From assembly GCA_965223555.1 (NCBI GenBank), contig CBDCWU010000009.1, positions 375,619 through 439,618 of the forward strand: a stretch of DNA of 64,000 nt. The letters run 5' to 3'. The position numbers were made by a program, and so were the translations under genes. Source of the DNA: Candidatus Promineifilaceae bacterium. Lineage in GTDB: Bacteria; Chloroflexota; Anaerolineae; Promineifilales; Promineifilaceae. Positions within the stretch are counted from its first letter, which is position 1; the number at the start of each line of letters is the position of its first letter. Shown here piece after piece: positions 7,722 through 46,320 of this stretch. The notes under the pieces were generated by a model, which worked only from the letters and a program-made list of their open reading frames with translations, was not told where the DNA came from and ran no database searches.

Positions 7722-9413
7722 TTATCTCTCCGCCAGTACAACGTAATTGTTATTGTACCAATTAAGTATTATCGAAAAGACGATGCTAATCGCCAAATAA
7801 ACCAGCATCATCAGGATAACCAACTGCAAGGAACGGCCCGACTGGTTAATCGTCACATTTGAAACACGGTACATATCTGAAAAACCTAAGGCCAGACCCA
7901 AACTCGTATCCTTAATTAGGCTGAGATAGGTGCCAATCAGGGGAGGAATAATAACCCTTAAGGATTGTGGCAAGACCACTAGCCGGAGTCGTTGACTTTC
8001 GCTCAAACCTAACGCACGGGCTGCTTCTGACTGTCCTTTAGACACAGATTGAATGCCGGCCCGTACCAACTCAGCCAGACCGCCACCATAAAATAGTACC
8101 AAACCTATGAGTAACGCAGTGAATTCTGGTGTTAACTTGGTGCCACCAGCGATGTTCAAACCTTCGAAGGCGGGCACACTCCAAACAACTGGCTTTTCGC
8201 TGACAGGCACAATAAGATGCCCATTAGGATTTTCCAAAGTGACACGCTCTGCTGCTAATACAGACTTGGGAGCAGCAAATACTTCACAGCTCCCTTCGCC
8301 ATAGGCCTCTGCTGCTTGGTCAGCCCGATCAAAGCGGGTGATCTGGTAAGGAATACCTTGCCGACGTAACTGTGAAATAAAGTTAGCTTCCGACGGTGAA
8401 TCCCGCAAGACACAGATGGTGAGCGCGGCCGCGGCCAGATCCTCTTCCGATAATTGATCTAGTTCGCCGATAATATTGACACCAGTGCGATTGATCATCA
8501 ACTGCTCAATATCGCCTACTTCTCGAATCCGGCTGGCCTTTGTTGCTAACAAACCTTGCGTATCTGACAAAGCACCAGACACAAACCAACCAATGCCAAT
8601 GACGATGAGGAAAGAGAGGATGCCCAAACCCACTTTGTTACTGGCCTTGCCCGTTTGTTCTTCACGGCGGCCTAAAAAGATAGAGAGTACCTGATATTGA
8701 ATAACACCTAATACCAGAAATGCCAGCCAGATGGCAGCCGATGAAGTAAATTGCGGCCAAGGGAAGTTTAAGCCGCGATTATTAAAGAAGATGGGCAGTC
8801 CCAATAGTTGCACAGTATCTTGGAGATCTGGCCCAGCTAAAATAACGCCAAAATACAAAATAAATAGCACGATCAACAGGGGGATGTTACGCATCAACTC
8901 CACATACCATAGAGCGATTTGGCTTATCAGCCAATTGCTAGATAGGCGGGCAATACCGGCCAAGGTACCCACAATTGAAGTTAGGAGCACCCCCAAAAGC
9001 CCCACCTTCATGGTGTTCAAAAAGCCTTGATAGAAGGCATACCAATAAGAGTCGGTGGTTTCATAAGGCAAAACGGTTTCGCTAATATCAAAACCAGCCT
9101 GTGTACTCATGAAATCGAAGGCACAGCGGTAACTAAAGCTGCCATCCGAACAAATAAACTGGGATTCACCCAATTTGCCGACATTTGAAGCAAAGTTCGT
9201 GCCTAAAGTTTGGACAGCGATTATCACCAAGATAATGAAGCCAATTTGCCCAAACACGCCTAACACACGGCCGTCCCGCCAAAAAGGGATATTTTGGGTA
9301 GGGGCAGCACTTATTTCTGGTCCCATAATTCTCTCTCCTTCCCGAATCCTAATCCAAGCTAAACCAAGCCAACTGCCCAACAGGGTTTTCCCTGTTGGAA
9401 AGTAGACATCCAA
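7722..9413 (-). CDS. Amino-acid ABC transporter permease (AapQ/HisQ family, extended)
   Basis: SEAARALGLSESQRLRLVVLPQSLRVIIP permease signature. 563 aa. Sits 2 nt upstream of the second permease. Confidence 0.8.
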   Translation of the reverse strand: MDVYFPTGKTLLGSWLGLAWIRIREGERIMGPEISAAPTQNIPFWRDGRVLGVFGQIGFIILVIIAVQTLGTNFASNVGKLGESQFICSDGSFSYRCAFDFMSTQAGFDISETVLPYETTDSYWYAFYQGFLNTMKVGLLGVLLTSIVGTLAGIARLSSNWLISQIALWYVELMRNIPLLIVLFILYFGVILAGPDLQDTVQLLGLPIFFNNRGLNFPWPQFTSSAAIWLAFLVLGVIQYQVLSIFLGRREEQTGKASNKVGLGILSFLIVIGIGWFVSGALSDTQGLLATKASRIREVGDIEQLMINRTGVNIIGELDQLSEEDLAAAALTICVLRDSPSEANFISQLRRQGIPYQITRFDRADQAAEAYGEGSCEVFAAPKSVLAAERVTLENPNGHLIVPVSEKPVVWSVPAFEGLNIAGGTKLTPEFTALLIGLVLFYGGGLAELVRAGIQSVSKGQSEAARALGLSESQRLRLVVLPQSLRVIIPPLIGTYLSLIKDTSLGLALGFSDMYRVSNVTINQSGRSLQLVILMMLVYLAISIVFSIILNWYNNNYVVLAER

Positions 9414-9521
9414 TTTCCTTACTTAATAAGTTAACCCAGGTCGAATGTCTATATAATCAATTGTTAAAGACCAAAGAGGCGAACTTGTTTAAGTGTTCGC
9501 CTCTTTGGTTATCGTTTATTA

Positions 9522-10715
9522 TTAACGGAATGGTGGCGAGTACAACAGGCCGCCATCTGTCCATAGAGCATTCACACCGCGAGGCAGGTCAAACTTGAAG
9601 GGGGAATCGGGGCCAAGATTGGCCAGATAAATCTCTTCGTAATTGCCCACTTGTTTGATGATCTGGTAACAGAAATCATTATTCAAGCCCATAGCTGAAC
9701 CTAAATCACCCTCAACGCCAAGCAGGTTCAAGATTTCGGGATCGTCACTGCCCAACATTTCGTCCACATTCTGGGAATTTACGCCCTTTTCTTCGGCTTG
9801 CATGGTGCAGAAGGTAGACCATTGCACGATGTCAAACCAGTTATCATCGCCATGACGTACTAGTGGGCCAAGAGGCTCTTTAGACATGGTGACTTCCAAG
9901 ATAACATGGTCGGAAGGCTCGGTCATAATCACTTGTCCGCTAACCAGGCCAGATTTATCCGTCGTATATCCGTCACAACGCCCCTCGTCATAAGAGATAC
10001 GTGCATTATCGCCTTCAAAGGTAACGGCTTCATAGTTGATACCGAGGCTCGACATCACAGAGGCCAGGTTTAGCTCAGTAGTGGTACCAGCAGTCACACA
10101 TACGGAACCGCCTTCGAGGCCTTCTAGATCGGTAATGCCGGAATCTTTACGCACCATCATGCCTTGCCCATCGTAGAAGGTTGTGGCCACAAAGTTGAAG
10201 CCCAAGGCTGTATCACGGGTCGTGGTCCAAGTGGTCTGGCGTGAAAGCAAATCTACCTCACCAGATTGCAGGATGGGGAAGCGCTCGGTGGATGTATTGG
10301 GACGGGCAACAACGGCATCGGCATCGCCAAAGACGGCGGCTGCTATGACACGGCAATATTCCCAGTCAAAGCCAGAATAGCTGCCGTCGGCCTCAATAAA
10401 GCCAAAACCTGGCGAGGCACCTTGGGGTACACCACAAATTAGCTCGCCGCGATCTTGGACTGTTTGTAGGGTATCGCCCCCACCAGCAAATTCAATGGCC
10501 TCGGCTGCACCACCAGCAACAGCGTCGCCTGCCGCAGAAACGGCCGCTTCTGCGGTGGCTTGGGCATCTGCCAATTGTTGAGTTAAATCATCAATTTGGC
10601 CTTGTAAAGCGGCTGAATCGCCACTATCTCCACCACCACAGGCTACGATACCGAGGCTCAGAATAAGCATTGCAACAATAAATTTGATTCGTTTTGTCAT
10701 TTGTCTCTCCTCCAA
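9522..10715 (-). CDS. Amino-acid ABC transporter substrate-binding lipoprotein (family 3 SBP, AapJ-like)
   Basis: Lipoprotein signal with lipobox IVAC. SBP_bac_3-like core. First gene of a four-gene minus-strand operon. Confidence 0.75.
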   Translation of the reverse strand: MEERQMTKRIKFIVAMLILSLGIVACGGGDSGDSAALQGQIDDLTQQLADAQATAEAAVSAAGDAVAGGAAEAIEFAGGGDTLQTVQDRGELICGVPQGASPGFGFIEADGSYSGFDWEYCRVIAAAVFGDADAVVARPNTSTERFPILQSGEVDLLSRQTTWTTTRDTALGFNFVATTFYDGQGMMVRKDSGITDLEGLEGGSVCVTAGTTTELNLASVMSSLGINYEAVTFEGDNARISYDEGRCDGYTTDKSGLVSGQVIMTEPSDHVILEVTMSKEPLGPLVRHGDDNWFDIVQWSTFCTMQAEEKGVNSQNVDEMLGSDDPEILNLLGVEGDLGSAMGLNNDFCYQIIKQVGNYEEIYLANLGPDSPFKFDLPRGVNALWTDGGLLYSPPFR

Positions 10716-12089: not shown

Positions 12090-12386
12090 ATGTCTATGAA
12101 GCTCAAACCGCTGGGCGATCGTTTAGTGGTGGAACCCAAAGAACGTGAAGAAATGACGGCTTCTGGTTTGATTCTGCCAGAAACAGCCAAAGAAAAGCCT
12201 CAAGAAGGCGAAGTCATGGCCATAGGGCCTGGTCGCCGCGATGATGATGGCAAACGTGTGGCTATGGATGTGTCTGTAGGTGATCGTGTTTTGTACGCCA
12301 AATATGGCGGTACAGAAGTTAAAATTGATGGCAAAAAATTGCTCATTTTGAAAGAATCAGACGTCCTCGCAATTGTTGAGGCTTAA
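12090..12386 (+). CDS. groES: Co-chaperonin GroES
   Basis: 98 aa with the mobile loop and GroES fold sequence. RBS GGAG upstream. Confidence 0.95.
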
Positions 12387-12396
12387 AGGAGATTGA

Positions 12397-14040
<1,644 letters not shown>

Positions 14041-33498: not shown

Positions 33499-36210
33499 AT
33501 GAACCTTGCAAATTTTGAGGCAGATGTAGCGGCTCCACAACGGCCGTTACTGCAAACCAAGCTCTGTATGCCCCGTACCCGGCACAGGGCCATCTCTCGC
33601 CCACGCTTAATCGAACAGCTGAATACGGCCGTTACCCCCGATGGCCTCATCCAACCCAAACTCACCCTCATTACCGGCCCCGCTGGTTACGGCAAAACCA
33701 CCCTCGCCACACAGTGGCTTAGCAATTTACGATTAGAGAATATTGCAATCAGCAATCGGCAATCGCAAATTGTCAATCCACACCTGGCTTGGCTCTCCCT
33801 CGACACAGGCGACAACGACGAAGCCCGCTTCCTGGCCTACCTCTTTGCCGCCATCGGCACGGTGCAGGAAGAGATTGGCGAGGCAGCCCAATCTCGCCTC
33901 ACCACCACGTACCTCTATAACGATACACAGGCTATCCTGACAACCTTTCTCAATGATCTGGCTGTGTGCAGCGAAACCATTGTCCTAGTTTTGGACGATT
34001 ATCACTTGATTACAGCCACGGCCGTTCATGAAATTACTACCTGCATTCTGCAGCACATGCCCGTGCAACTGCATATGGTCATCACCAGCCGCAGCGAGCC
34101 ACCCCTGCCTTTGGCCCTCCTGCGTGCTCGCCACAGCCTCAACGAAATCACTGCCCGTGATCTACGTTTTAACCAAGAAGAAGCTGCTCAGTTTTTGGGC
34201 CATACCATGAGTATACATCTGGCTCCTGCCCAAATCAGCCAGCTTGAGGAACAGGTTGAAGGCTGGGTCACAGGCTTACAATTGGCAGCCTTAGCTTTGC
34301 AGGAAAATGTGACCCTTCAACAATCCTTCTCCGGCAACCAACGCTATCTAGTGGATTATTTGGCCGAGCAGGTACTTGGCTGCCAACCGCCCGATGTACA
34401 GGAATTTTTGTTAAAAACGGCCGTTCTCAGCCAATTCAATGCCGATTTATGCGCCCATCTTACCGATTGTGATAGCCAAGCCATGCTCAGTTACCTTGAA
34501 ACTGCCAACCTCTTCCTCATCCCTCTAGACGCTGAGCGGCACTGGTATCGCTATCACCATCTATTTGCTGACTTTTTGCACGGCCGTTTGCAACAACAAA
34601 AATCCACCAGCACCATCTCTACTCTACACCAACGCGCTGCCCATTGGTATCAAGTCAATGGACAGCCGCTAACGGCCGTTGACCACGCCCTAGCCGCTGG
34701 CGACTACGATCTGGCCGTCACCGCCATTGAGCAAGTGGCCCGACAAGTGCTCATGTTTGGCGAAGGTAGCACCCTGCGCCATTGGCTAGAAAGCTTACCG
34801 GATGCCAAACGTACCGCTCAACCCAACCTTATCCTCTTCTATGCCTGGTCCCTCATCCGCACTGGCGATTTAGATCAGGCGAAAGTCATGCTGAAAGCCA
34901 TTAGCGACCAGCTAGATACACCACTGCTTTGGGGCGAATGGTCTGCTCTTTGGGCACGGCTGGCTGTTATGACGGGCGATGTAGACATCAACATTCGCTT
35001 CTCCCAAAAAGCCTTAGCCAAATTACCTCCCGACCAGCATATGCTCCGCAGCGAAGTCGCTATTAATCTGGGCTTTTCCCACTTGCAGCAAGCTGATGTG
35101 GCTGCCGCCCGAGCCGCTTTTGCCGAAGCCGCCCAAAACACAGCCCATGACCCTGGCCTGTGGGCCGTCATGTTCGCCACCTTCTATTGGGGACAAACAT
35201 ATGAGAGGCAAGCCCAGCTTCATGAGGCTTTTGAGATTTATCAGCGTGGTTTAACTTTAGCCGAGGGTCAAATGAACGGCCGTTCTCCCTCATCGGCCGT
35301 TGGCTTTATGCACATTGCCTTAGGACGTATTTACTACGAGTGGAACCGTCTGGCCGAAGCTGAAAGTCACATTCGCCGTGCCCTAGCCTGCGCCGAACGC
35401 AGTGGCGACCATAAAATGCTCATCTACAGCCGCGAAGCCCTAGCCCAACTCCTCACCACTTTAGGGGACTGGCAAGCAGCTCAAACTATCGTCAACGATT
35501 TGGAGCAGCAAACCCAGTCTCCCCCTGGAACATCTAAACTTCGTGCCATCCTGGCCTTGCAATGTAGCGACATAGCTACAGCCCAAAAGTGGGCGACCAA
35601 TCTAGAAATTGCCCTCACCGACCCGCCCCATCGCATCCAAGAATGGCCGATGGCCTATCTCACATTGGTGCAATTACACCTAGTGACGCGGGAGTTTGAG
35701 GGCGTTTTAGGCGTCTTAGACACATTGGCCGCCTACGGCAAAACTCGGCAAAGTACACAATTTTTACTTACGGTCCATTGTTTACAAGCGCTAGCCTATA
35801 GCAAACAGGGGGATATAGAAACGGCCGTTACCCATTGCCAACGTGCCTTGGCTCTGGCCGAACCAGGTGGCTATATCCGCCTCTTCCTCGATTATCAAGA
35901 TGCCGCACTGGCCCGTTTATGGCACCAGGTAGCTGCTAGTGGTGGGGCCACAGCCACATATGCCCATGCACTCCTAACCCATCTCCAGCCTGAAGAAGCC
36001 AGCTCCGTGCCCGCTGTCCAACCACTCAGCCCCCGCGAGTTGGAAGTGCTACAGCATTTGGCCGTTGGCCTCACTAACCGCCAGATCGCTGTCCAAATGG
36101 TCGTTACTATCAATACTGTCAAGGCCCACACGCGTCGTCTCTATGCCAAGCTGGATGTCAAAAGTCGCACTCAAGCTGTAGCCCGCGCTCGTCAATTGAA
36201 CCTCTTGTAA
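33499..36210 (+). CDS. MalT-like STAND ATPase / LuxR-family transcriptional regulator
   Basis: Walker A GPAGYGKTT, long TPR-like helical region, C-terminal LuxR HTH (LSPRELEVLQHLAVGLTNRQIA). Confidence 0.8.
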   Translation: MNLANFEADVAAPQRPLLQTKLCMPRTRHRAISRPRLIEQLNTAVTPDGLIQPKLTLITGPAGYGKTTLATQWLSNLRLENIAISNRQSQIVNPHLAWLSLDTGDNDEARFLAYLFAAIGTVQEEIGEAAQSRLTTTYLYNDTQAILTTFLNDLAVCSETIVLVLDDYHLITATAVHEITTCILQHMPVQLHMVITSRSEPPLPLALLRARHSLNEITARDLRFNQEEAAQFLGHTMSIHLAPAQISQLEEQVEGWVTGLQLAALALQENVTLQQSFSGNQRYLVDYLAEQVLGCQPPDVQEFLLKTAVLSQFNADLCAHLTDCDSQAMLSYLETANLFLIPLDAERHWYRYHHLFADFLHGRLQQQKSTSTISTLHQRAAHWYQVNGQPLTAVDHALAAGDYDLAVTAIEQVARQVLMFGEGSTLRHWLESLPDAKRTAQPNLILFYAWSLIRTGDLDQAKVMLKAISDQLDTPLLWGEWSALWARLAVMTGDVDINIRFSQKALAKLPPDQHMLRSEVAINLGFSHLQQADVAAARAAFAEAAQNTAHDPGLWAVMFATFYWGQTYERQAQLHEAFEIYQRGLTLAEGQMNGRSPSSAVGFMHIALGRIYYEWNRLAEAESHIRRALACAERSGDHKMLIYSREALAQLLTTLGDWQAAQTIVNDLEQQTQSPPGTSKLRAILALQCSDIATAQKWATNLEIALTDPPHRIQEWPMAYLTLVQLHLVTREFEGVLGVLDTLAAYGKTRQSTQFLLTVHCLQALAYSKQGDIETAVTHCQRALALAEPGGYIRLFLDYQDAALARLWHQVAASGGATATYAHALLTHLQPEEASSVPAVQPLSPRELEVLQHLAVGLTNRQIAVQMVVTINTVKAHTRRLYAKLDVKSRTQAVARARQLNLL

Positions 36211-37660: not shown

Positions 37661-38521
37661 TTACCGTCTTCGTTTTTTCTTTTTGGCTTTGCGACGTGTT
37701 TTTAGTTTGATGATACGTTTCTTTTTAGGCGGTGGCGGGGGATCGGCCGTTTCCTCACCCATATCTCCAGCTAGCAACTGTTCTAATTTTGCCATAGTAG
37801 GATATTGCTCACCCAACCACCCCCGACGCGGCGCAGGTGTGATTCTTTCGCTGAGCAAACCCAATCTAATTTGTACCTCTTCCCAATCACCTAAAATAGA
37901 AACATCCACCTTGTTCGCTTTGAACGCCGCCGCCATCGTATCAGCCGCCTCAACGGCCTGTAAATCACACAACTCAGAAACAAGGCCACCATTAAGCGTG
38001 AGGGATTGTTTACGATGCTTGGCTAACTGGCGGGTCAAGAGTTCGACACACTCTTCTCGGTAAGCCGGGTATTGCCCACCGATTTTTTGAATGGCAGTTG
38101 CTGCCGCCCAACGACTAAAATCCCCATATTGCGGATTGACCAGATAGCCAGCTAGGTTAGGCAAAGTCTCTGGGCCAATCATAGCCAAGACATCCGGCAA
38201 GTCGCCATGTTCCCAATCGTGATTGAGGTCATCATCGTCAATACGAGTCAGAAGTTTGACCAACGGTTTAATGGCCACAACAGCTTGCAGTTGCCCTAAA
38301 GCCCGCCAAGCGTGGAGGTTGGCCCACACCTCATCTGAATCCTCATCCGCCCAATTAAGTTCCTCGTCTTGCATCATGCGTATGAGATCGGGAATGTGTG
38401 CCTCTGTTAGGCCACAGGTGGTTTTATAATCCAGCCACTCCTCCTGGCCGCGCACGTCGCCTAGCGTCAGCAGTTGGGCCATGGGCTGTCCATACGTTTG
38501 TGGCTTTGGCAAATCTGCCAT
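37661..38521 (-). CDS. Hypothetical protein with polyproline plus polybasic C-terminal tail (PPPPPKKKRIIKLKTRRKAKKKKRRR)
   Basis: 286-aa ORF co-oriented with the NACHT gene and immediately downstream of it. Confidence 0.5.
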   Translation of the reverse strand: MADLPKPQTYGQPMAQLLTLGDVRGQEEWLDYKTTCGLTEAHIPDLIRMMQDEELNWADEDSDEVWANLHAWRALGQLQAVVAIKPLVKLLTRIDDDDLNHDWEHGDLPDVLAMIGPETLPNLAGYLVNPQYGDFSRWAAATAIQKIGGQYPAYREECVELLTRQLAKHRKQSLTLNGGLVSELCDLQAVEAADTMAAAFKANKVDVSILGDWEEVQIRLGLLSERITPAPRRGWLGEQYPTMAKLEQLLAGDMGEETADPPPPPKKKRIIKLKTRRKAKKKKRRR

Positions 38522-38636: not shown

Positions 38637-40799
38637 TTACAGGTCGTTGATTAGTTTTTGGAATTCGGCTTCGTCGGCCAGGAATTCTAGGAGGGTGCGA
38701 TGGATGAACATCCAGCCGCCACCCACGCGGCGCAGCAATAGACGCGCCGCCATCCCATCCAAATAGGCAACCAACTTCCGATCCCGAAAAGGAAAGGGTA
38801 GCATCCCCTGCCGCGCCAACAACCAGCGCAACACATAATGCTTTATCACCGTTTCTCCCCCATATTGCATTGGCCCGATCATAAGCCCGATCATAAGCCC
38901 GACCACCAGCCCCAGCCCCAGCCCGAAAATCAGTTCACCAATGAGCGCAAAGATTAGTCCACCTCCCAATCCGAAAATTAGAGCAACAATTAGCCCATAC
39001 ACAGGACCTGTCCGCCGTGCATTATGCCATGATGTCCGAACACCTTGATTAGGTTGGGAACGTTGAAGCGTTCTATTTGTATGAATAAGAGATTCAAGTG
39101 CAGCTATTAGCCCGAAAATTAGCACACCGCCCAACCCGACAATCAGCCCAGCAATCAGCCCAGCAGTCAGCCCAGCAATCAGCCCGAAAATTAGCCCAGC
39201 ACCCAACCCAAAAATTAGCCCAGCGATCAATCCTTGTTTGATTTTTGACCGCAAAAGGGGAGAGTGAGGGCGTAGCCAACGGATTTCTTCAACTAACTGT
39301 ATAGGACCACTATCAGATACAAAAAACTGTTTAAGACTCTCGTCACGAATGCCTATACCACCTTTGAAACCGAGAAACAATCCTATTAACAGCCAAACAA
39401 CTAACCCTGCAATTAGCCCAAGAATTAGACCAACAACCAAGCTGGTAATCAGACTAAAAATTAATCCAATAACCAGACTAACAATCAGCCCAGCAATCAG
39501 CCCAGCAATCAGCCCGAAAAGCCAACGGTAGGAACGGGGATTGGGTGGCCAGCTTGGTTGTAGCTGCTCAATGTAAAAAACAGATTGGTTATGGGCTTGC
39601 AATTGGTGGGCAAGGTGGTACAACCAGGTTAAGGCGGCATGTTCATTATACGGGCCATCAGGGGGTAAGGGGCGGCGGTGCAAGTTGTGCTTGATGTAAG
39701 CGGTAAACAGTTGGTTCCGCTTGTCAGCCAAGCTCCCGCCTGCGGGCAAGGGCGTTTCACTAAAGGTGAAGGCCATGAGGTTAAGCATGAGGGGGGATTG
39801 GGCCAGTTCGCGCCACTCGTCGTCGGTGGCCACGGCTTGGCGCAGGCCGGCCAGGGGGGCGCTGAAGCTGGCTAGGTAGTCGTCTATCTGGCTGGGGGTC
39901 AGGGGCTGGAGGCGGATGGCGCTGCTGAGGTTGAGCTGTGCTTGCAGTTGCTCGTAATCGGCCAGGCGGCTGCACACCACCATGTCGGCGGGGTGGTCGG
40001 CTTTGAAGCTGTTGATGGCTGTCACACAAGCTTCGCGCTGTTCGGCAGCCACTTCATCCAGCCCATCCAGCAGCAGTGTTAACTGGTTGCCTGTCAGCCA
40101 GTCGCGGCTCAACTGGCGCGGGGCTTGGTACTGCACCAGCAATTCCTCCACTATCCAAGCAACCAAGTCCCCGCCTTCTCGCGCCCACGAGGAGAGATTA
40201 AGGACAATGGGAATGGGCTCATTGGGGTCGGCTTGGGCGGCGGTCAGCAACTCTTGCAAGAGTTGCAGCAGGGCAATGGTTTTGCCACTGGCTGGTTCGC
40301 CCAAAATCAGCAAGGCTCGTCCCCGCGCCGCGAATATTTGGGCCAAACTGGTGTCGGCTGGAATAGGCTGCTCCTCAGGGTAAAGGCTACGGTGGGGGCG
40401 GCTAAGGGCATCATGCTGGTAGCTCATGTCCAAGGCCAGGGCCACATCGTTGTGCAGGGCTGGCTCTAATATGCCCTCAATCCAGGTGTGGTGGATGTTG
40501 TTGAGGATGTTTTGGCGGTTGCGTTGTTGGGGGTGGCTGGGGGTGGCGGTGGTCAGGGCGGCAGCGAGTTCGGCGGCATTGGGCCACGTGAGTTTGTCAC
40601 GTTCCTCACGTAAAGCGGCAATTAGTTCATCTAATTGCTCGCGCCGCTGCACGTGAGTTAGCAGGGAACGAATTTTGCTGGATTTGCGAAAGCCATCCAA
40701 CTCGTCCCAATCCACACCTAAATCCATAGCCAAACCGCGTAGCTCTTCTTGGTCGAAGCTGCGGGCGATTTGTTGGTGGAGCTGTTTGGCTAGGTTCAT
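38637..40799 (-). CDS. NLR-like NACHT/STAND NTPase: N-terminal effector-associated (death-like) adaptor domain, NACHT core, and about 290-aa glycine-zipper TM repeat insertion before the C-terminal winged-helix motif
   Basis: Walker A LILGEPASGKT. Walker B LTLLLDGLDEV. Winged-helix motif RRVGGGWMFIHRTLLEFLA at the extreme C-terminus. Three blocks of (GLIxGLIx)n. The N-terminal ~60 aa are homologous to the N-terminus of the CHAT protein. Confidence 0.8.
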   Translation of the reverse strand: MNLAKQLHQQIARSFDQEELRGLAMDLGVDWDELDGFRKSSKIRSLLTHVQRREQLDELIAALREERDKLTWPNAAELAAALTTATPSHPQQRNRQNILNNIHHTWIEGILEPALHNDVALALDMSYQHDALSRPHRSLYPEEQPIPADTSLAQIFAARGRALLILGEPASGKTIALLQLLQELLTAAQADPNEPIPIVLNLSSWAREGGDLVAWIVEELLVQYQAPRQLSRDWLTGNQLTLLLDGLDEVAAEQREACVTAINSFKADHPADMVVCSRLADYEQLQAQLNLSSAIRLQPLTPSQIDDYLASFSAPLAGLRQAVATDDEWRELAQSPLMLNLMAFTFSETPLPAGGSLADKRNQLFTAYIKHNLHRRPLPPDGPYNEHAALTWLYHLAHQLQAHNQSVFYIEQLQPSWPPNPRSYRWLFGLIAGLIAGLIVSLVIGLIFSLITSLVVGLILGLIAGLVVWLLIGLFLGFKGGIGIRDESLKQFFVSDSGPIQLVEEIRWLRPHSPLLRSKIKQGLIAGLIFGLGAGLIFGLIAGLTAGLIAGLIVGLGGVLIFGLIAALESLIHTNRTLQRSQPNQGVRTSWHNARRTGPVYGLIVALIFGLGGGLIFALIGELIFGLGLGLVVGLMIGLMIGPMQYGGETVIKHYVLRWLLARQGMLPFPFRDRKLVAYLDGMAARLLLRRVGGGWMFIHRTLLEFLADEAEFQKLINDL
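38850..39530 (-). repeat. Three arrays of 12-nt tandem codon repeats (GCTGGGCTGATT-like, encoding A-G-L-I) inside the NACHT gene
   Basis: Direct tandem DNA repeats, e.g. aatcagcccagc x4 and gatcataagccc x2. In-frame, hence copy-number variable without frameshift. Confidence 0.7.
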
Positions 40800-40974
40800 G
40801 GTTGGTTTAGATAATAGTCAGCTTGCAGGAGATTGTACAGAGGAAGAAAAGGGATTACAACATCTGCACTCAAACAATTTGTTGCTTGACAACTCTCCTG
40901 GCAGGATCGTATCATCTGCTCACGATATTGTTCTCCGGTTAGATAAATATTTACTATCCATTCGCAAACAAAAC

Positions 40975-42261
40975 ATGACATCCGCGAATGGGCTTCAAGT
41001 AGCCGCTCGGTTGGGAACGTGTGCAGTTCATTATGAAATGAACGGCTACTTGGCAATCAGTGAGCAGTCCATGACAGCAAGCATCCCATTTCAACTTGAT
41101 AAACCGGGGAGTGGAGCCACGATTGTCTATCGCCCTTGGGGAATTTCTACGCTGAAAGTGCAAATAAGCACCCAAACAGATCTACCTCCTTTACGTCTAC
41201 GGCCGCAAAATGTGCACCCTGAAGAGGCAGCCAATGGGCTCTTTCGGGCCTTTGCTGATGATAGTGACGCCTTCATTATCAGCTGGGGTGGTGGCAATGA
41301 GCCGGGGCCATGCAGCCAAGCCGAAGATTTTCTGATGGCCTTTGAAAAGTGCGTGGACTTAAATCCGGGCGAAGGCAGCACTGTCTTTTTTAATGTGCAG
41401 CATGTGGGGCCAGATGTGCCGGAAACAAGCCTCATTACGTTGCAAGCCTATGATGAAGAGAGCGGGGATGTCGTAGCCGTGCTGCCTATTCAGATGGAAC
41501 AAACGGCGGCTTATCGGGCGGATGCGGTGCAATTTGTTGAGGCGGAGCCAGGGATTTGGCGACCATCAGGCAGCAGCTTGCCCACGTATGATCCGCGCTG
41601 GTGGCCGCGCTCAGTGGACTATGTGCCAGCCGATGAGTTGCCGCTAACAATTCAGTGGGGGAATAATGAGCTATTTGTGTTATGGCAGGATCATGTAGCT
41701 GCAACGGTAAGGGATCATACGCAGCCGACGATTTTGGATTTAGGCGACATTTCGTATGAACTATTTTACTTTGATGAGTGGCATGTGGCTTTACGAATCT
41801 GGTTTTTTTGGCTGGACAAGAATGTTGGCACGGATTTTTTTGTAGGGCGACATGAGGTGCCCGATGCCGAACGCTTTGATATGTTGATCCGACGCCAAGA
41901 CGGCGCCACGACGCTGGCTTGCACGGATTTGCATTGGCGGGAGACGTGGGGGCGGGTGAAAAAAGGCGAGCCGCTAGAGGCAACGCTGGGGCTGAGTACG
42001 GATACAAAGATTAAGCTGGCCAAGGAGGCTTTGGGCAAGGTGTGGCAGGTGTGGCAGCGGGATGAGAAGGTGGATCATAAACGGCCGTATGACCCTCTCA
42101 CCTATATCCAACGCATGGCCGCCACTCTGGGGGCAGAAGCTGTAGGCACGGTTCGGGCCAAAGGCACCGAAGCCCATTTGCCCGCTTTGCAAAATGTGGA
42201 AACAACTGACCAACCAGGCCGGCCGCCACGCATGACAAGTAGTGATGTGAGATTAGGATAG
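40975..42261 (+). CDS. Hypothetical protein (428 aa) divergent from NACHT gene and immediately upstream of CHAT gene
   Basis: No recognisable motif. The track ORF begins at 40675 but that would overlap the NACHT start; the first ATG after the NACHT gene is 40975. Confidence 0.5.
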   Translation: MTSANGLQVAARLGTCAVHYEMNGYLAISEQSMTASIPFQLDKPGSGATIVYRPWGISTLKVQISTQTDLPPLRLRPQNVHPEEAANGLFRAFADDSDAFIISWGGGNEPGPCSQAEDFLMAFEKCVDLNPGEGSTVFFNVQHVGPDVPETSLITLQAYDEESGDVVAVLPIQMEQTAAYRADAVQFVEAEPGIWRPSGSSLPTYDPRWWPRSVDYVPADELPLTIQWGNNELFVLWQDHVAATVRDHTQPTILDLGDISYELFYFDEWHVALRIWFFWLDKNVGTDFFVGRHEVPDAERFDMLIRRQDGATTLACTDLHWRETWGRVKKGEPLEATLGLSTDTKIKLAKEALGKVWQVWQRDEKVDHKRPYDPLTYIQRMAATLGAEAVGTVRAKGTEAHLPALQNVETTDQPGRPPRMTSSDVRLG

Positions 42262-42358: not shown

Positions 42359-44086
42359 ATGAACAGAAGGGATCTCGTTAAGTTAATAGCCCGTGATTTT
42401 GCGGATCAAGAGGAGTTTACCGATCTGCTCTTTGAGCTTGATTTAGAATACGGCAACATAAAAGGCAGCACGATTTCGGCCAAGTCACGTGAATTAGTGA
42501 CTTACAAGGAACGCCGTGGTGAAGTGGAAGAGTTATTAACAGCAATCGTCGCGATGCGACCAAATTTACAGGAACAGTTGGAAGCATATGATGGTGTGCG
42601 GCCTGGCATGGATATTGGCAAGAACAAAGGTCAAGGCTCATCCAGGCGGGGAGGGCAATCTCATCCAGGAATGGGTGATGATACGACTGATGAGCAGCAA
42701 GGTTTAGCATACGAGAATTTTGATATACGGATTCTGACGGCGGATTCAGATGGCAGTTATCGCATTCAAGTAAATCGTAATCCCGAAAATATGGAGATGT
42801 ACGATGATGTACGGCAGAAGTTTCCCCTGGATGATTATGATTTTGTTGATTTGGTAGATTACTTGTCTGATTTGATTGCCCAAGGGAATGATGCCAAACA
42901 GTTGGGGAAAATGATGCGCGACTTGCTCTTTCCGGGGCGTATTGGCGAGATATTTTTTGCCAATATGGGCAGTATGCGGCGGCAGGGGAAGGGGTTGCGC
43001 ATTCGTTTGCGCATTGATGCGCCGGAATTGAGCAAACTACCTTGGGAATATTGTTATGGCGGGGATGAGTTTGGCTTTTTTGCTCTGGACCCGCGTACGC
43101 CGCTGGTGCGCTATATTGCACGGCCGTTTGAGACTTCAACACTAGCTGTACCCAACCCCATGAAAGTGCTGCTGGCGATTGCGGCACCCTCAGACCAAGC
43201 ACCTTTGAGTGTGGATGAGGAAGAGCGGCGGGTGCGCAGTTGGCTCAGCGTGATGGGGGATCGGGTACAGTTGCGAGTAGTGCGCAATGCCACCCCGCAG
43301 CGTCTACAGGCAGCCTTGACGGATTCACCCCACATTTTCCACTTTATTGGGCATGGTGAATTTGTAGATGGGATGGGCAAATTGGTGCTGGAGGATAATT
43401 TTGGTAAATCTGAATATCGTGATTCGGAGCAGTTGAAGGTGATGCTGCGTGGGCGTGATGTGAAGGTAGTGATTCTGAATGCTTGTAAGTCGGCGGCGGG
43501 CAATGCCCACGCCGCTTTTGCGGGGGTGGCTCCAGCCTTGGTGCAGGCAGATGTGCCGGCGGTGATTGCCATGCAGTTTAATGTGCCGGACAAGACAGCC
43601 TTGGGCTTTACGCAGGATTTGTATCGCTATTTGATGGCGGGTTATCCTCTGGATCAGGCGGTGACGGAGATGCGGGCGGGGGCGTTTAATAATGCCAATG
43701 ATAAGTATTTCTGGGGTATCCCGGCCTTGTATATGCGCTCACCAGACGGCCGTTTGTGGGAGCCTGAGGCTGAATTATTGGCTAAGTTTGAGGAGGCGCG
43801 GGAAACGGCCGTTGACCAAGCTGGTGCCACGATTCCTGAGTTATTGCAGCAAATTAAAGATGAGGTGCAGAGCGCGGGTGATGTTGATGATCGAGATCGA
43901 GAGTACATTCTGCGCGGTTTAGATGATGGTTTGAGAGCGGCCAATGAAGGAGACGGCCGAGATGTGGCCTATTATCTTAACCGTGTTATTGATGATCTGA
44001 AGCGTTCTCGTTCGGATACGGCCGAGAAAGAGATTGTGCCGAAGGTGGAATTTGTGATACAGCGGGCAGAGAACGAGATGGGTTAA
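42359..44086 (+). CDS. CHAT-domain caspase-like peptidase with N-terminal effector-associated adaptor domain
   Basis: Catalytic His (IFHFIGHGEF) and Cys (VVILNACKSAAG) of the caspase-haemoglobinase fold, preceded by the LPWEYCYG helical region. N-terminal 65 aa align with the NACHT N-terminus (IAR.F.DQEE...L..L...G...K.R.L.T...RR...EL). Confidence 0.85.
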   Translation: MNRRDLVKLIARDFADQEEFTDLLFELDLEYGNIKGSTISAKSRELVTYKERRGEVEELLTAIVAMRPNLQEQLEAYDGVRPGMDIGKNKGQGSSRRGGQSHPGMGDDTTDEQQGLAYENFDIRILTADSDGSYRIQVNRNPENMEMYDDVRQKFPLDDYDFVDLVDYLSDLIAQGNDAKQLGKMMRDLLFPGRIGEIFFANMGSMRRQGKGLRIRLRIDAPELSKLPWEYCYGGDEFGFFALDPRTPLVRYIARPFETSTLAVPNPMKVLLAIAAPSDQAPLSVDEEERRVRSWLSVMGDRVQLRVVRNATPQRLQAALTDSPHIFHFIGHGEFVDGMGKLVLEDNFGKSEYRDSEQLKVMLRGRDVKVVILNACKSAAGNAHAAFAGVAPALVQADVPAVIAMQFNVPDKTALGFTQDLYRYLMAGYPLDQAVTEMRAGAFNNANDKYFWGIPALYMRSPDGRLWEPEAELLAKFEEARETAVDQAGATIPELLQQIKDEVQSAGDVDDRDREYILRGLDDGLRAANEGDGRDVAYYLNRVIDDLKRSRSDTAEKEIVPKVEFVIQRAENEMG

Positions 44087-44238: not shown

Positions 44239-44275
44239 CCGGATTACGGTTTACCGATTACTGATTACGGAACAT
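44239..44275. repeat. Copy of ccggattacggtt.accgatta repeat element between CHAT and nuclease genes
   Basis: cggattacggtttaccgattactgattacgg compared with 18395-18425. Confidence 0.4.
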
Positions 44276-45074
44276 GCCAGATACGCTCACCCTTAGTCGC
44301 ACGAAGTTTTCTGCTTTTTTGGCTTGCCAGCGGCGCTTTGAATTGCGCTATTTGCGGCAATTGTCCTGGCCAGATGTGCCTTTGTCGGAGCAGTCGGCCT
44401 TGGTGCAGAAACGGGGGCAACAGTTTCATCAGTTGTTGGAAAGACATTTCCTAGGGCTGTCAATAGAGTTGAATGGCATTAGCGACAGTGTGGTGCGCCG
44501 ATGGTGGCTGGCATTTCAGGGCAGTAATCCAGTCTCCAGTCTCCAATCTCCAGCCTCTAGCTGGCAACGATTACCAGAACTGTCGCTCACTATTCCGGTG
44601 GGAGGTTATTTGCTGAACGGCCGTTTCGACCTCCTCGTTATAGCTGACCAACAAGCCCACATCTTTGACTGGAAAACGGGCAAACCCCAACCGGAGCGGC
44701 GTTTGCGCCATGATTGGCAAACACGCCTTTATTTGGCAATGGTAGCCGAGAGCAGCACGGCATTGGGGGCAGATTTTGCGCCGGAGCAGATTACCCTCAC
44801 CTACTGGTATGTGTCCGAACCAGATGCGCCGCGCACAATCCAGTATGATGCGGCCTGGCATAGGCAAAATTGGGCCGAGATTGAGCAGTTGGTGACACAA
44901 ATTGAGGTCGCCACAGCTGAGGGGATGTGGCCGTTAACGGATGATTGGGAGCAATGCCGTCCGTGTGCCTATCGGGCCCATTGTGGGCGACAAGAGGTTG
45001 AAACGGCCGAATCCGCTCCCGATGAAGATGCAGAAGAAGTTGTGAGTTTGCAATTGGAACCAAATATCCCATAA
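44274..45074 (+). CDS. PD-(D/E)XK nuclease with Cas4/AddB-like Fe-S cysteine cluster
   Basis: Motifs GRFDLLV ... IFDWKTGK (D ... D/ExK). One N-terminal Cys plus C-terminal C-X2-C-X5-C (CRPCAYRAHC). Confidence 0.6.
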   Translation: MPDTLTLSRTKFSAFLACQRRFELRYLRQLSWPDVPLSEQSALVQKRGQQFHQLLERHFLGLSIELNGISDSVVRRWWLAFQGSNPVSSLQSPASSWQRLPELSLTIPVGGYLLNGRFDLLVIADQQAHIFDWKTGKPQPERRLRHDWQTRLYLAMVAESSTALGADFAPEQITLTYWYVSEPDAPRTIQYDAAWHRQNWAEIEQLVTQIEVATAEGMWPLTDDWEQCRPCAYRAHCGRQEVETAESAPDEDAEEVVSLQLEPNIP

Positions 45075-45103
45075 TAAGACAGCGGATTTACGGAATGGTT
45101 TTT

Positions 45104-45142
45104 GACACGGATAGGGAAGAGGCCTTATCCGTGTTTGTTTTT
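45104..45142 (+). terminator. Rho-independent terminator closing the CHAT-nuclease unit
   Basis: acacggata-loop-tatccgtgt followed by TTGTTTTTT. Confidence 0.7.
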
Positions 45143-45147
45143 TATCT

Positions 45148-46320
45148 ATGACTTTAGATGAGTTTTATTTTTTGTTGACGGCTGAAGGGCAGCAGCTTTT
45201 GGGCCAGGTTCCCTTAATTACGCCGGAAACGCATTTGGCAACGGCGGTCCAGTTACGACGCCAGGTGGGCCAGGGGTTGGCGCAGGCAGTACTGGAAACA
45301 GCCTTATTGCGGCAGGAAGCGGCCGTTAAGTTTAGCCGAGCGTCTGATATGTACTTCAGTCGGGAAGCTTTGGAACAATCCTCATCGGAGGTGGTAGCTA
45401 GGTATCGGGCAGAGCGTTTTTTTCGGGCTGGGATTGAGCGCGTGGCAGATTTGGGCTGCGGCATTGGCGGTGACTCGTTGGCATTGGCGGCAGGGATGGA
45501 AGTGATGGGGGTGGAGTGGCAGCCAGTACGGTTGGCCATGGCCCAAGAGAATGTGCGGGTGTATGGTCATGGGGCTAATTTTCGGCCGTTGCAGGCAGAT
45601 TTACTGGAATTAACGCCGCTGCCTGTGCAGGCCGCTTTTTTTGATCCAGCGCGGCGGGATGAAAACGGCCGTCGTCTCACTTCTGTTCATCAATATCGGC
45701 CCCCACTTAGTTTGATTGACAAGTGGCGGGTGTGGATTGGGGAAACGGCCGTGAAAATCAGCCCCGGCGTGGCCTATGACGAATTGCCAGAAGATGCTGA
45801 GATAGAGTTCATTTCTGTAAATGGTGATGTAAAAGAAGGCGTATTGTGGTTTGGCGATTTGCGCTCCGGTGTTAGGCGACGGGCGACATTATTGCCCTCA
45901 GGTGAGACGTTGACAGACAGGGAGATGCCGATGACACCCATTGCTGTGACTAAACCACAGGCCTACCTGTATGAGCCAGACAAGGCGGTAATTCGGGCAC
46001 ATCTGGTGCAAGCATTGGCACAGCAGTTGGGGGCAACTAAACTGGATGAGGAGATCGCCTATTTAACGGCCGATTCAGTCCAACCAACTCCTTTTGCTCG
46101 CTGTTTTGTCATTGAGGATTGGTTTCCCTTCCAACTTAAACGGCTGCGGCACTATTTACGGGAGCGTGATATAGGACGTGTGGTCATCAAAAAGCGCGGT
46201 TCGCCCTTGCAGCCAGAAACATTGCAACGCCAATTACGCTTACAAGGCGATAATGAATGTATTATCTTTTTGACACATGTGGGGGGAGAAGCGGCCGTTT
46301 TAATTGGGCAACGCCCTTAG
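45148..46320 (+). CDS. Class I SAM-dependent methyltransferase (putative RNA methyltransferase with N-terminal extension)
   Basis: Motif I VADLGCGIGGDSLALA. 390 aa. Confidence 0.5.
   Translation: MTLDEFYFLLTAEGQQLLGQVPLITPETHLATAVQLRRQVGQGLAQAVLETALLRQEAAVKFSRASDMYFSREALEQSSSEVVARYRAERFFRAGIERVADLGCGIGGDSLALAAGMEVMGVEWQPVRLAMAQENVRVYGHGANFRPLQADLLELTPLPVQAAFFDPARRDENGRRLTSVHQYRPPLSLIDKWRVWIGETAVKISPGVAYDELPEDAEIEFISVNGDVKEGVLWFGDLRSGVRRRATLLPSGETLTDREMPMTPIAVTKPQAYLYEPDKAVIRAHLVQALAQQLGATKLDEEIAYLTADSVQPTPFARCFVIEDWFPFQLKRLRHYLRERDIGRVVIKKRGSPLQPETLQRQLRLQGDNECIIFLTHVGGEAAVLIGQRP

Follow-up and report, generated by a model that had tools for sequence, protein, structure and literature searches.

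A Candidatus Promineifilaceae NACHT protein with predicted glycine-zipper hairpins inserted in its winged-helix domain

This study concerns a stretch of 64,000 nucleotides (here called the window) from contig CBDCWU010000009.1 of the Candidatus Promineifilaceae bacterium assembly GCA_965223555.1, and within it a gene for a NACHT-type NTPase. The encoded protein consists, in this order, of an effector-associated domain 7 (EAD7), a NACHT core, three hydrophobic blocks, and a tail of 75 amino acids (aa) that carries the winged-helix histidine motif of NLR proteins. In our reading of a structural model and a family alignment, the hydrophobic blocks form a predicted transmembrane (TM) array that sits within the winged-helix domain (WHD), between its first strand and its second helix, and is not merely C-terminal. 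We propose a membrane-bound, NLR-like switch in which the WHD-inserted hairpins act as sensor or regulatory tether, EAD7 provides clustering, and a CHAT protease provides the output, an account that we hold to be probable, if only to a modest degree. The gene is a member of a catalogued, uncharacterised class and not the discovery of a new kind.

RESULTS

Gene structure and domain order

The gene is a single intact open reading frame (ORF) that encodes 720 aa, with the stop codon counted in its coordinates. The publicly called gene product (P0001) comprises 696 aa, is 100% identical, and begins at Met25, with the first helix of EAD7 (window positions 40728-40799) lost. An upstream ATG at 40799, located 24 codons before the public start, gives back the full EAD7 match. 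We take this ATG as the correct start, since the match to the EAD7 profile begins at aa 7 and the homologues P0002 and P0003 have the same start. The features of the gene, all on the minus strand, are as follows, with the evidence in brackets.

38637..40799, minus: EAD7-NACHT protein with TM insert, complete coding sequence (ORF list)
40599..40781, minus: EAD7, a death-like adaptor, aa 7-67 (Pfam PF19960, E 2.2e-19)
39870..40316, minus: NACHT P-loop NTPase core, aa 162-310, with Walker A G167-T174, Walker B D245-G-L-D-E249, and sensor-1 R278
39675..39869, minus: putative helical domain 1 (HD1), aa 311-375, including the conserved P336-L-M-L (AlphaFold2 [AF2] helices 314-375; P336 nearly invariant)
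39549..39674, minus: winged helix part 1, aa 376-417, with helix 386-402, a strand at about 407-408, and FYIEQLQPSW (AF2, conservation)
39354..39539, minus: predicted TM hairpin 1, TM1 aa 421-451 and TM2 aa 454-482, repeats at aa 427-478 (insertion energies of -3.4 and -4.5 kcal/mol, periodicity, AF2)
39264..39353, minus: predicted cytoplasmic linker 1, aa 483-512, motif I-x-L-V-E-x-x-x-W (motif seen in homologues)
39087..39263, minus: predicted TM hairpin 2, TM3 aa 513-542 and TM4 aa 544-571, GLxx repeats at aa 523-568 (hydropathy, periodicity, AF2, energy)
39003..39086, minus: predicted cytoplasmic linker 2, aa 572-599, nearly invariant P583-N584-Q-G (conservation)
38865..39002, minus: predicted TM hairpin 3, TM5 at about aa 600-618 and TM6 at about aa 623-645 (hydropathy, periodicity, AF2, energy)
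38640..38864, minus: winged helix part 2, aa 646-720, with helices 646-663 and 673-685, a beta-hairpin at 689-698, and FIHRTLLEFLA (AF2)

A weak death-domain signal was found in Pfam for the EAD7 region only. The NACHT family PF05729 passed its gathering cutoff on the borderline (26.7 bits versus 26.7 bits), and most homologues carry a precomputed PF05729 annotation. The NTPase motifs are intact and, in an alignment of 89 homologues that underlies all conservation values given here, largely invariant. In the Walker A motif (G167-EPASGK-T174), G167, G172, and K173 never vary and T174 is kept in at least 90% of the homologues, and the Walker B motif L-L-L-D245-G-L-D248-E249 fits the signature D[GAS]hDE with D, G, L, D, and E all invariant, as is sensor-1 R278. 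The assignment of aa 311-375 to HD1 was made by likeness to NLRs and is accordingly putative.

The hydrophobic blocks follow a four-residue repeat

A Kyte-Doolittle scan revealed three long hydrophobic blocks at aa 427-478, 523-568, and 600-643 and no others in the protein. They are set apart by polar linkers of 44 aa and 31 aa that are rich in lysine and arginine. A (G/S)-L-x-x register runs through blocks 1, 2, and 3 for 52, 46, and 44 residues, respectively, without a frame shift. Position 1 of the repeat is Gly or Ser in 12/13, 10/12, and 8/11 repeats, while position 2 is Leu (Phe once), with Pro in the final repeat of block 3. When each block was shuffled 20,000 times with its composition preserved, using the best-phase Gly/Ser fraction as the statistic, no shuffle equalled the observed fraction for blocks 1 and 2, and block 3 gave P = 0.0012. 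An initial annotation of this DNA had described, at 38850-39530 (aa 424-650), three linker-separated blocks with Gly or Ser at every fourth position. The unbroken register and the shuffle test uphold this description, apart from a few exceptions to the small-residue rule (V, A, W, and E). Its size estimate of about 290 aa was too high, as the insert, bounded by the conserved residues W417 and G647, measures about 227-229 aa (aa 418-646).

The DNA of all three blocks shows a 12-nucleotide (nt) periodicity that matches the protein repeat. Within the TM-coding blocks there are 12-nt tandem arrays, perfect and in frame, at 38873-38902 (2.5 copies) and 39482-39515 (2.8 copies). Slippage in such an array would change the number of (G/S)Lxx units by exactly one and leave the zipper register intact.

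Six predicted membrane helices form three hairpins

Within the blocks, 19-aa Kyte-Doolittle means reach 2.6-3.0, with a maximum of 2.98. Insertion energies were calculated as the simple sum of the known values of the Hessa biological hydrophobicity scale over 19-residue windows. Furthermore, an AlphaFold model, proposed in the initial annotation for the TM region, was built with AF2 from the family alignment of 89 sequences. It reached a mean predicted local distance difference test (pLDDT) score of 91.4 and a predicted template modeling (pTM) score of 0.82, with a confidence of 82-95 in the insert region. There, six helices (aa 421-451, 454-482, 513-542, 544-571, 585-618, and 623-663) pair into three confident hairpins with turns of just 1-4 residues. 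All six hold a 19-residue window with negative insertion energy (-0.7 to -4.5 kcal/mol), and no such window was found outside aa 426-642 of the protein, in agreement with the earlier suggestion that the array is hydrophobic enough to span a membrane.

The polar stretch at aa 479-522 contains 8 K/R residues and is modelled as a short helix plus a strand at 505-508. The second one, at aa 569-599, contains 5 K/R residues versus 1 acidic residue, and its P583 and N584 are kept in at least 90% of the homologues. K/R residues of the insert are confined to the two linkers and the two junctions, with zero in the hairpin turns, a placement that fits the positive-inside rule for a six-TM protein with both termini inside. 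An even number of spans is needed because the two halves of the nucleotide-binding oligomerization domain (NOD) must meet on the same side of the membrane. The model thus suggests an N-in/C-in topology with six TM helices and almost no periplasmic loops.

The blocks could alternatively represent a repeat that is soluble, either of low complexity or coiled coil, an artefact of assembly or of a frameshift, or a gene in decay. The 12-nt tandem repeats could come from slippage, and some homologues carry polar residues at the x positions of the repeat. However, the ORF is intact, the position of the insert is kept in 89/89 homologues from several phyla, and the insert is flanked by the best conserved parts of the protein. 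Together with the hydropathy maximum, the negative predicted energy of six out of six helices, and the model confidence across the region, this makes such an origin very improbable.

The insert splits a winged helix of the NLR type

The two motifs between which the initial annotation had placed the array lie in the two parts of the predicted winged helix: YIEQLQPSW at aa 409-417 precedes the array and the motif RRVGGGWMFIHRTLLEFLA at aa 690-708 stands close to the end of the protein at aa 720. No LRR, WD40, or TPR domain was found in Pfam after the winged helix, as had also been noted before. In part 1, E411 is invariant and W417 is nearly invariant (at least 90%). In part 2, G647, H654, R658, P668, and H700 are invariant and G648 is at least 90% conserved. 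H700 opens the last helices, directly after the beta-hairpin of the AF2 model.

A Foldseek search against the Protein Data Bank (PDB) matched the model to NOD2, NLRP3, NLRC4, and NAIP5, with E values down to 6.5e-7, and its unit of nucleotide-binding domain (NBD), HD1, and WHD is closest to known NACHT structures. Superposition of the entire model is best with the closed, ADP-bound NLRs NOD2 and NLRP3, whereas activated NLRC4 aligns across just 257 residues. This is expected if the winged helix of the model is formed and docked as in the ADP-bound state, and from this comparison we infer a closed conformation for the model.

For sequence comparison, an NLRP3 winged-helix query was used that was confirmed to be 100% identical to PDB NLRP3 residues 438-542. 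Using a family profile with the insert deleted, hhalign found a sole local match, WMFIHRTLLEFLADEA against NLRP3 YSFIHMTFQEFFAAMY, in which H700 pairs with His522 (P 2.3e-4); in NLRs, the conserved WHD histidine contacts the nucleotide. Global hhalign to NLRP3 failed, and the local histidine-motif alignment alone was usable. This alignment agrees with the previous interpretation of FIHRTLLEFLA as a winged-helix signature. Likewise, the array does interrupt the NOD as previously claimed, judging from the pairing of H700 with His522 and the superposition on closed NLRs, but it lies within the WHD and not ahead of an intact one.

A widespread family with a conserved insertion point

To the initial annotation this layout was highly unusual, a view that the size of the family contradicts. 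A word-indexed protein search, in which 8,000 candidates were scored, yielded 1,619 significant relatives, with typical matches spanning about 86-98% of the query including the insert and the C-terminal tail. When one genome per species was scanned, at least 400 loci were confirmed by tblastn. They occur in Chloroflexota, many cyanobacteria, Chlorobaculum, Rhodothermaceae, Blastocatellia, Nitrosomonas, Beggiatoa/Thiotrichales, Calditrichaceae, and one archaeon, Methanocrinis. The archaeal member (Candidatus Methanocrinis alkalitolerans, locus L030, match 8001-9572) shows 37% identity over query aa 73-708, which suggests transfer of the family between domains of life. Among the listed matches, the nearest relatives are proteins from Promineifilaceae and Ardenticatenaceae metagenome-assembled genomes (MAGs) with 66-70% identity.

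The architecture has also been named before. The supplementary discussion of Kibby et al. lists TM insertion into the NACHT module as a sensor class (class 4) of bacterial NACHT proteins (bioRxiv 10.1101/2022.07.19.500537; Cell 2023), and the paper also defines D[GAS]hDE as the NACHT Walker B signature and the N terminus as the effector or adaptor position (bioRxiv 10.1101/2022.07.19.500537). In keeping with class 4, the window protein has six predicted TM helices (aa 421-645) between its two WHD parts. The searched part of Table S1 of that study contained no TM annotations or members of this family, and no literature pairing NACHT with a glycine zipper was found beyond Kibby et al.

All 89 aligned homologues contain the insert, with a length of 184-361 aa and 3-7 hydropathy blocks, and in 87/89 the C terminus follows 10-40 aa after the WHD histidine, which argues against any other sensor in the family. 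The N-terminal domain varies; among 120 listed matches it was EAD7 in 43, TIR in 7, a kinase in 5, CHAT in 4, and DUF4062 in 2. Between close relatives, the insert is 30-58% identical versus 86-88% for the NOD. Such fast divergence is what a sensor surface, or a region under weak constraint, would be expected to show.

The low complexity, fast evolution, and variable length of the TM sequences would also suit hairpins that serve as a passive anchor, only holding the NACHT module at the inner membrane (e.g., near the site of phage DNA entry), with the signal read by the conserved cytoplasmic linkers, with their I-x-L-V-E..W and P-N-Q-G motifs, or by a partner protein. In line with this, the only nearly invariant motif within the insert, P583-N584, lies in the linkers, and the short periplasmic turns leave no space for a ligand-binding ectodomain. 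However, one terminal helix would suffice as an anchor, making six helices in the gating domain superfluous, and the invariant junction residues on both sides of the insert suggest mechanical coupling. Moreover, conservation is lower in the linkers, each taken in full, than in the TM blocks (entropy-based values of 0.34 and 0.44 versus 0.43-0.47). We therefore regard a purely anchoring role as doubtful.

An EAD7-CHAT gene lies close to the EAD7-NACHT gene

A separate supply of effector had been missed in the initial annotation, as had the N-terminal EAD7 adaptor itself. When all ORFs of the window were searched with the EAD7 of the NACHT protein using phmmer, one other copy was found, in the following gene.

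42359..44086, plus: probable partner of 575 aa, EAD7 (aa 6-68) and CHAT caspase-like peptidase (aa 211-452) (phmmer, Pfam)

Pfam supports both domains (EAD7, 2.7e-12; CHAT, 2.6e-27), and PADLOC gave a match to SAVED_CHAT (3e-12). Direct reading of the CHAT protein revealed HFIGHG and LNACKS as candidate motifs of a His/Cys dyad. The two EAD7 domains of the window show 36% identity over 67 aa, and their genes are divergent and 1.5 kb apart. Kaur et al. (2020) described systems in which the same small EAD adaptor is carried both by an NTPase core and by a free effector, with EAD7 among the presumed effector recruiters (PMC7159879). The same arrangement is found here, with EAD7 both on the core NTPase (2.2e-19) and on a stand-alone effector (2.7e-12), and the EAD7-CHAT protein is the probable recruited protease effector of the EAD7-NACHT protein.

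Related loci offer further combinations. In Chloroflexi OHK40 (L023, 6705-9962, plus strand), CHAT is fused to the N terminus of the TM-inserted NACHT protein, and in a Caldilineae MAG (L048, 2291-6439, plus strand) it is fused C-terminally past the winged helix, which is unusual. At locus L002 an EAD7-DUF7019 gene directly follows the EAD7-NACHT gene, and at L006 a trypsin-EAD7 gene directly precedes it.

Other genes of the window

An ORF of 528 aa with a TTG start (40675-42261, plus strand) lies between the two EAD7 genes and had no Pfam or PADLOC match. Since its annotated start overlaps the 5' end of the NACHT gene in antisense by about 125 nt, its true start is probably further downstream. 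This ORF and a DUF1186/HEAT gene (37661-38521) were considered as partners and rejected, as neither had relatives near family members in 80 loci; both were treated as unrelated. A MalT-like regulator of 903 aa with AAA_16, MalT TPR, and LuxR/GerE helix-turn-helix domains (33499-36210, plus strand), located 2.4 kb away, is a second, unrelated STAND-type protein. Just downstream of the EAD7-CHAT gene, at 44274-46320 on the plus strand, a PD-(D/E)XK nuclease (Cas4-like, with a C-terminal Cys cluster) is followed by a THUMP-like S-adenosylmethionine-dependent methyltransferase; no link of this pair to the NACHT family was seen. Overall, the neighbours other than the EAD7-CHAT gene (MalT-like LuxR, SGL propeller, DUF1186/HEAT, PD-(D/E)XK nuclease, and THUMP-like methyltransferase) do not travel with the family. 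A NACHT-like phmmer match at 12360-12590 (minus strand) was spurious, being antisense to groES/groEL.

The locus of the homologue P0003 (L081, 4381-6330) adjoins PIN/PhdYeFM and HigB toxin-antitoxin genes and a Y1 transposase-like gene. Its context is accessory or mobile, in contrast to the housekeeping-rich window.

DISCUSSION

Proposed mechanism

At rest, the NBD-HD1-WHD unit would be closed and ADP bound on the cytoplasmic side of the membrane. A membrane change would shift the packing or tilt of the hairpins, with a phage membrane protein, envelope damage, and loss of membrane potential as candidate triggers. This change would pass straight to the WHD, the domain that must swing off the NBD for NLR activation; direct transmission is suggested by the splicing of the hairpins between strand 1 and helix 2 and by the invariant junctions (E411, G647, H654, and R658). 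Nucleotide exchange and oligomerization in the plane of the membrane would then gather the N-terminal EAD7 adaptors, which would recruit the EAD7-CHAT protease by homotypic EAD7 contact and activate it by proximity. As an outcome, the infected or damaged cell could stop growing or die, as in an abortive-infection or programmed-death response.

We read the TM module as sensor or tether and not as effector because the N-terminal domain is exchanged between members of the family and the proteins stop directly behind the winged helix. The hairpins are the only module left for the sensor role, are spliced into the gating domain, and have junctions that rank as the most conserved positions of the region. 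As the periplasmic turns of 1-4 residues provide no ectodomain, the signal would be intramembrane (lipid or packing, voltage, or a foreign membrane protein) or would be read by the cytoplasmic linkers.

Several observations weigh against the switch as proposed. Membrane insertion is deduced from hydropathy and the AF2 model, and hydrophobicity in the family is often marginal, with at least four segments of negative simple-sum energy in 34/89 homologues only. In many homologues (e.g., P0016, P0080, and P0116) the x positions of the GLxx repeat hold Ser, Asp, Glu, or Asn, and few or no segments have negative energy, and constitutive membrane insertion is thus not obvious family-wide. Regarding the winged helix, profile searches of the PDB with full, insert-deleted (A2), and WHD-only (A3) alignments reached no NLR winged helix and gave only P-loop or NBD-HD1 matches to RFC, ORC, and NAIP; a STAT3 match (E 0.56) was dismissed as noise. 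Pfam likewise yielded no WHD family on insert-deleted HD1+WHD fragments. Because profiles alone missed the winged helix, the WHD assignment depends on one 16-column motif alignment together with the model. About 20/89 homologues have N termini of less than 70 aa with no recognisable effector, and some begin right at the NOD. No EAD7 partner was found within 10 kb of the closest relatives P0003 and P0002 (66-67% identical), so adjacency to CHAT is not conserved, and in the window the divergent orientation of the EAD7 genes, with an unrelated ORF between them, speaks against a tight operon. The window contains no obvious defence island. With PADLOC, only a weak partial match to PDC-S60 was obtained for the NACHT protein (E 3.6e-4, P-loop region) and no defence model was matched in full, and NCBIfam EruA scored 19 bits versus a cutoff of 1000. 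We infer a defence role solely from the family architecture. Finally, beyond Kibby et al., no further anatomy of or experiments on TM-inserted bacterial NACHT proteins were found in the literature.

A built-in pore

In an alternative explanation, the zipper hairpins are themselves the effector, and a NACHT oligomer would join 6n Gly-faced helices into a depolarising channel, as do the channels of plant resistosomes or of glycine zippers. The long unbroken zippers of the GxxxG type fit this idea, as does the marginal hydrophobicity in many homologues, a property of conditionally inserting or pore-lining helices. The module is also always present, regardless of the other domains, including in the roughly 20/89 members that lack a sizeable N-terminal domain. 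Most members, however, have a separate N-terminal enzymatic effector or effector-recruiting adaptor, and the window protein has EAD7 with an EAD7-CHAT gene nearby. As pore formers, these proteins would have no sensor, since they end just past the WHD, and the helices of the window protein are uniformly hydrophobic, with no polar lining face. A pore in place of a sensor is therefore unlikely, and the sensor reading fits the family architecture better.

The two readings are not mutually exclusive. The hairpins might be both sensor and executioner, such that a membrane perturbation frees the WHD and the NACHT ring gathers 6n Gly-faced helices into a pore. Such a protein would form a self-contained membrane 'resistosome' that also recruits a caspase-like protease via EAD7. 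We consider this combination quite unlikely, both for the dual role of the hairpins and for the 'resistosome' that would result from it.

Comparison with known systems

With the class of Kibby et al., the protein shares a NACHT module with a D[GAS]hDE Walker B motif, an N-terminal effector or adaptor, and multiple TM segments that interrupt the NOD, and, like that class, its family is enriched in cyanobacteria and in further multicellular or filamentous bacteria. In that paper, the class is given in one sentence without anatomy, whereas the insertion point, hairpins, linkers, and junctions are mapped here. The anatomy described here, namely, the insertion point in the WHD, the three (G/S)Lxx hairpins, the linkers with P-N-Q-G and I-x-L-V-E..W, and the invariant junctions, may be useful for work on this class.

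The EAD-coupled systems of Kaur, Burroughs, Iyer, and Aravind (eLife 2020, PMC7159879; eLife 2021, PMC8195603) resemble the window genes in that EAD7 occurs on an NTPase core with a second copy on a nearby caspase-superfamily CHAT peptidase, that in relatives the identical effector is fused straight to the core, and that the taxa are multicellular. They differ in that the window genes are divergent with an ORF between them and do not form one operon, and the nearest homologues lack an adjacent partner. The searched text passages of both papers contained no description of a TM-inserted NACHT core.

Animal NLRs (NOD2, NLRP3, NLRC4, and NAIP) share the WHD histidine motif 'F-I-H...Q/L-E-F-x-A' and the logic of a death-fold-like N-terminal adaptor that recruits a caspase-type protease. 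In contrast, the window protein lacks HD2 and LRR and ends with the WHD, its proposed sensor is an intramembrane insert of the WHD, and sequence identity is just 13-17%. In other NLRs, the sensor position is held by LRR, TPR, or WD40 repeats after the NOD, whereas here the hairpins lie within the WHD.

For KAP P-loop NTPases, TM segments that are inserted into the NTPase domain have reportedly been described, judging by the title of work by Aravind, Iyer, Leipe, and Koonin from 2004. They are alike in being P-loop NTPases of the conflict or signalling type with TM helices inside the module and not at its end. However, they belong to another NTPase clade, and the insert of the window protein is in the WHD, about 110 aa past the last NBD strand; Pfam gave no KAP_NTPase match at E <= 1, so that the protein was not assigned to KAP. 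Transmembrane glycine zippers (GxxxGxxxG) of channel proteins are said to have been described by Kim and colleagues in 2005. There, too, a small residue at every fourth TM position gives a flat packing face, but here 11-13 repeats run through whole hairpins with Leu fixed at the next position, and a channel role would follow only under the pore alternative discussed above.

Implications

For the window gene, the annotation can be corrected to a predicted membrane NACHT protein with an EAD7 adaptor, a new start codon, and a likely EAD7-CHAT partner. To our knowledge, NLR-type sensing of non-protein danger, such as membrane damage or ion flux, is unsettled even for NLRP3. If the hairpins were indeed both sensor and pore, NLR-type switches would read the state of the lipid bilayer directly via their gating domain. 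The protein studied here offers a simple bacterial case, in which the sole candidate sensor is a predicted intramembrane module within the winged-helix domain that gates activation. As the family is abundant, with members in hundreds of species, and modular, with EAD7, TIR, CHAT, or kinase domains, it could serve to establish or dismiss a new sensing principle.

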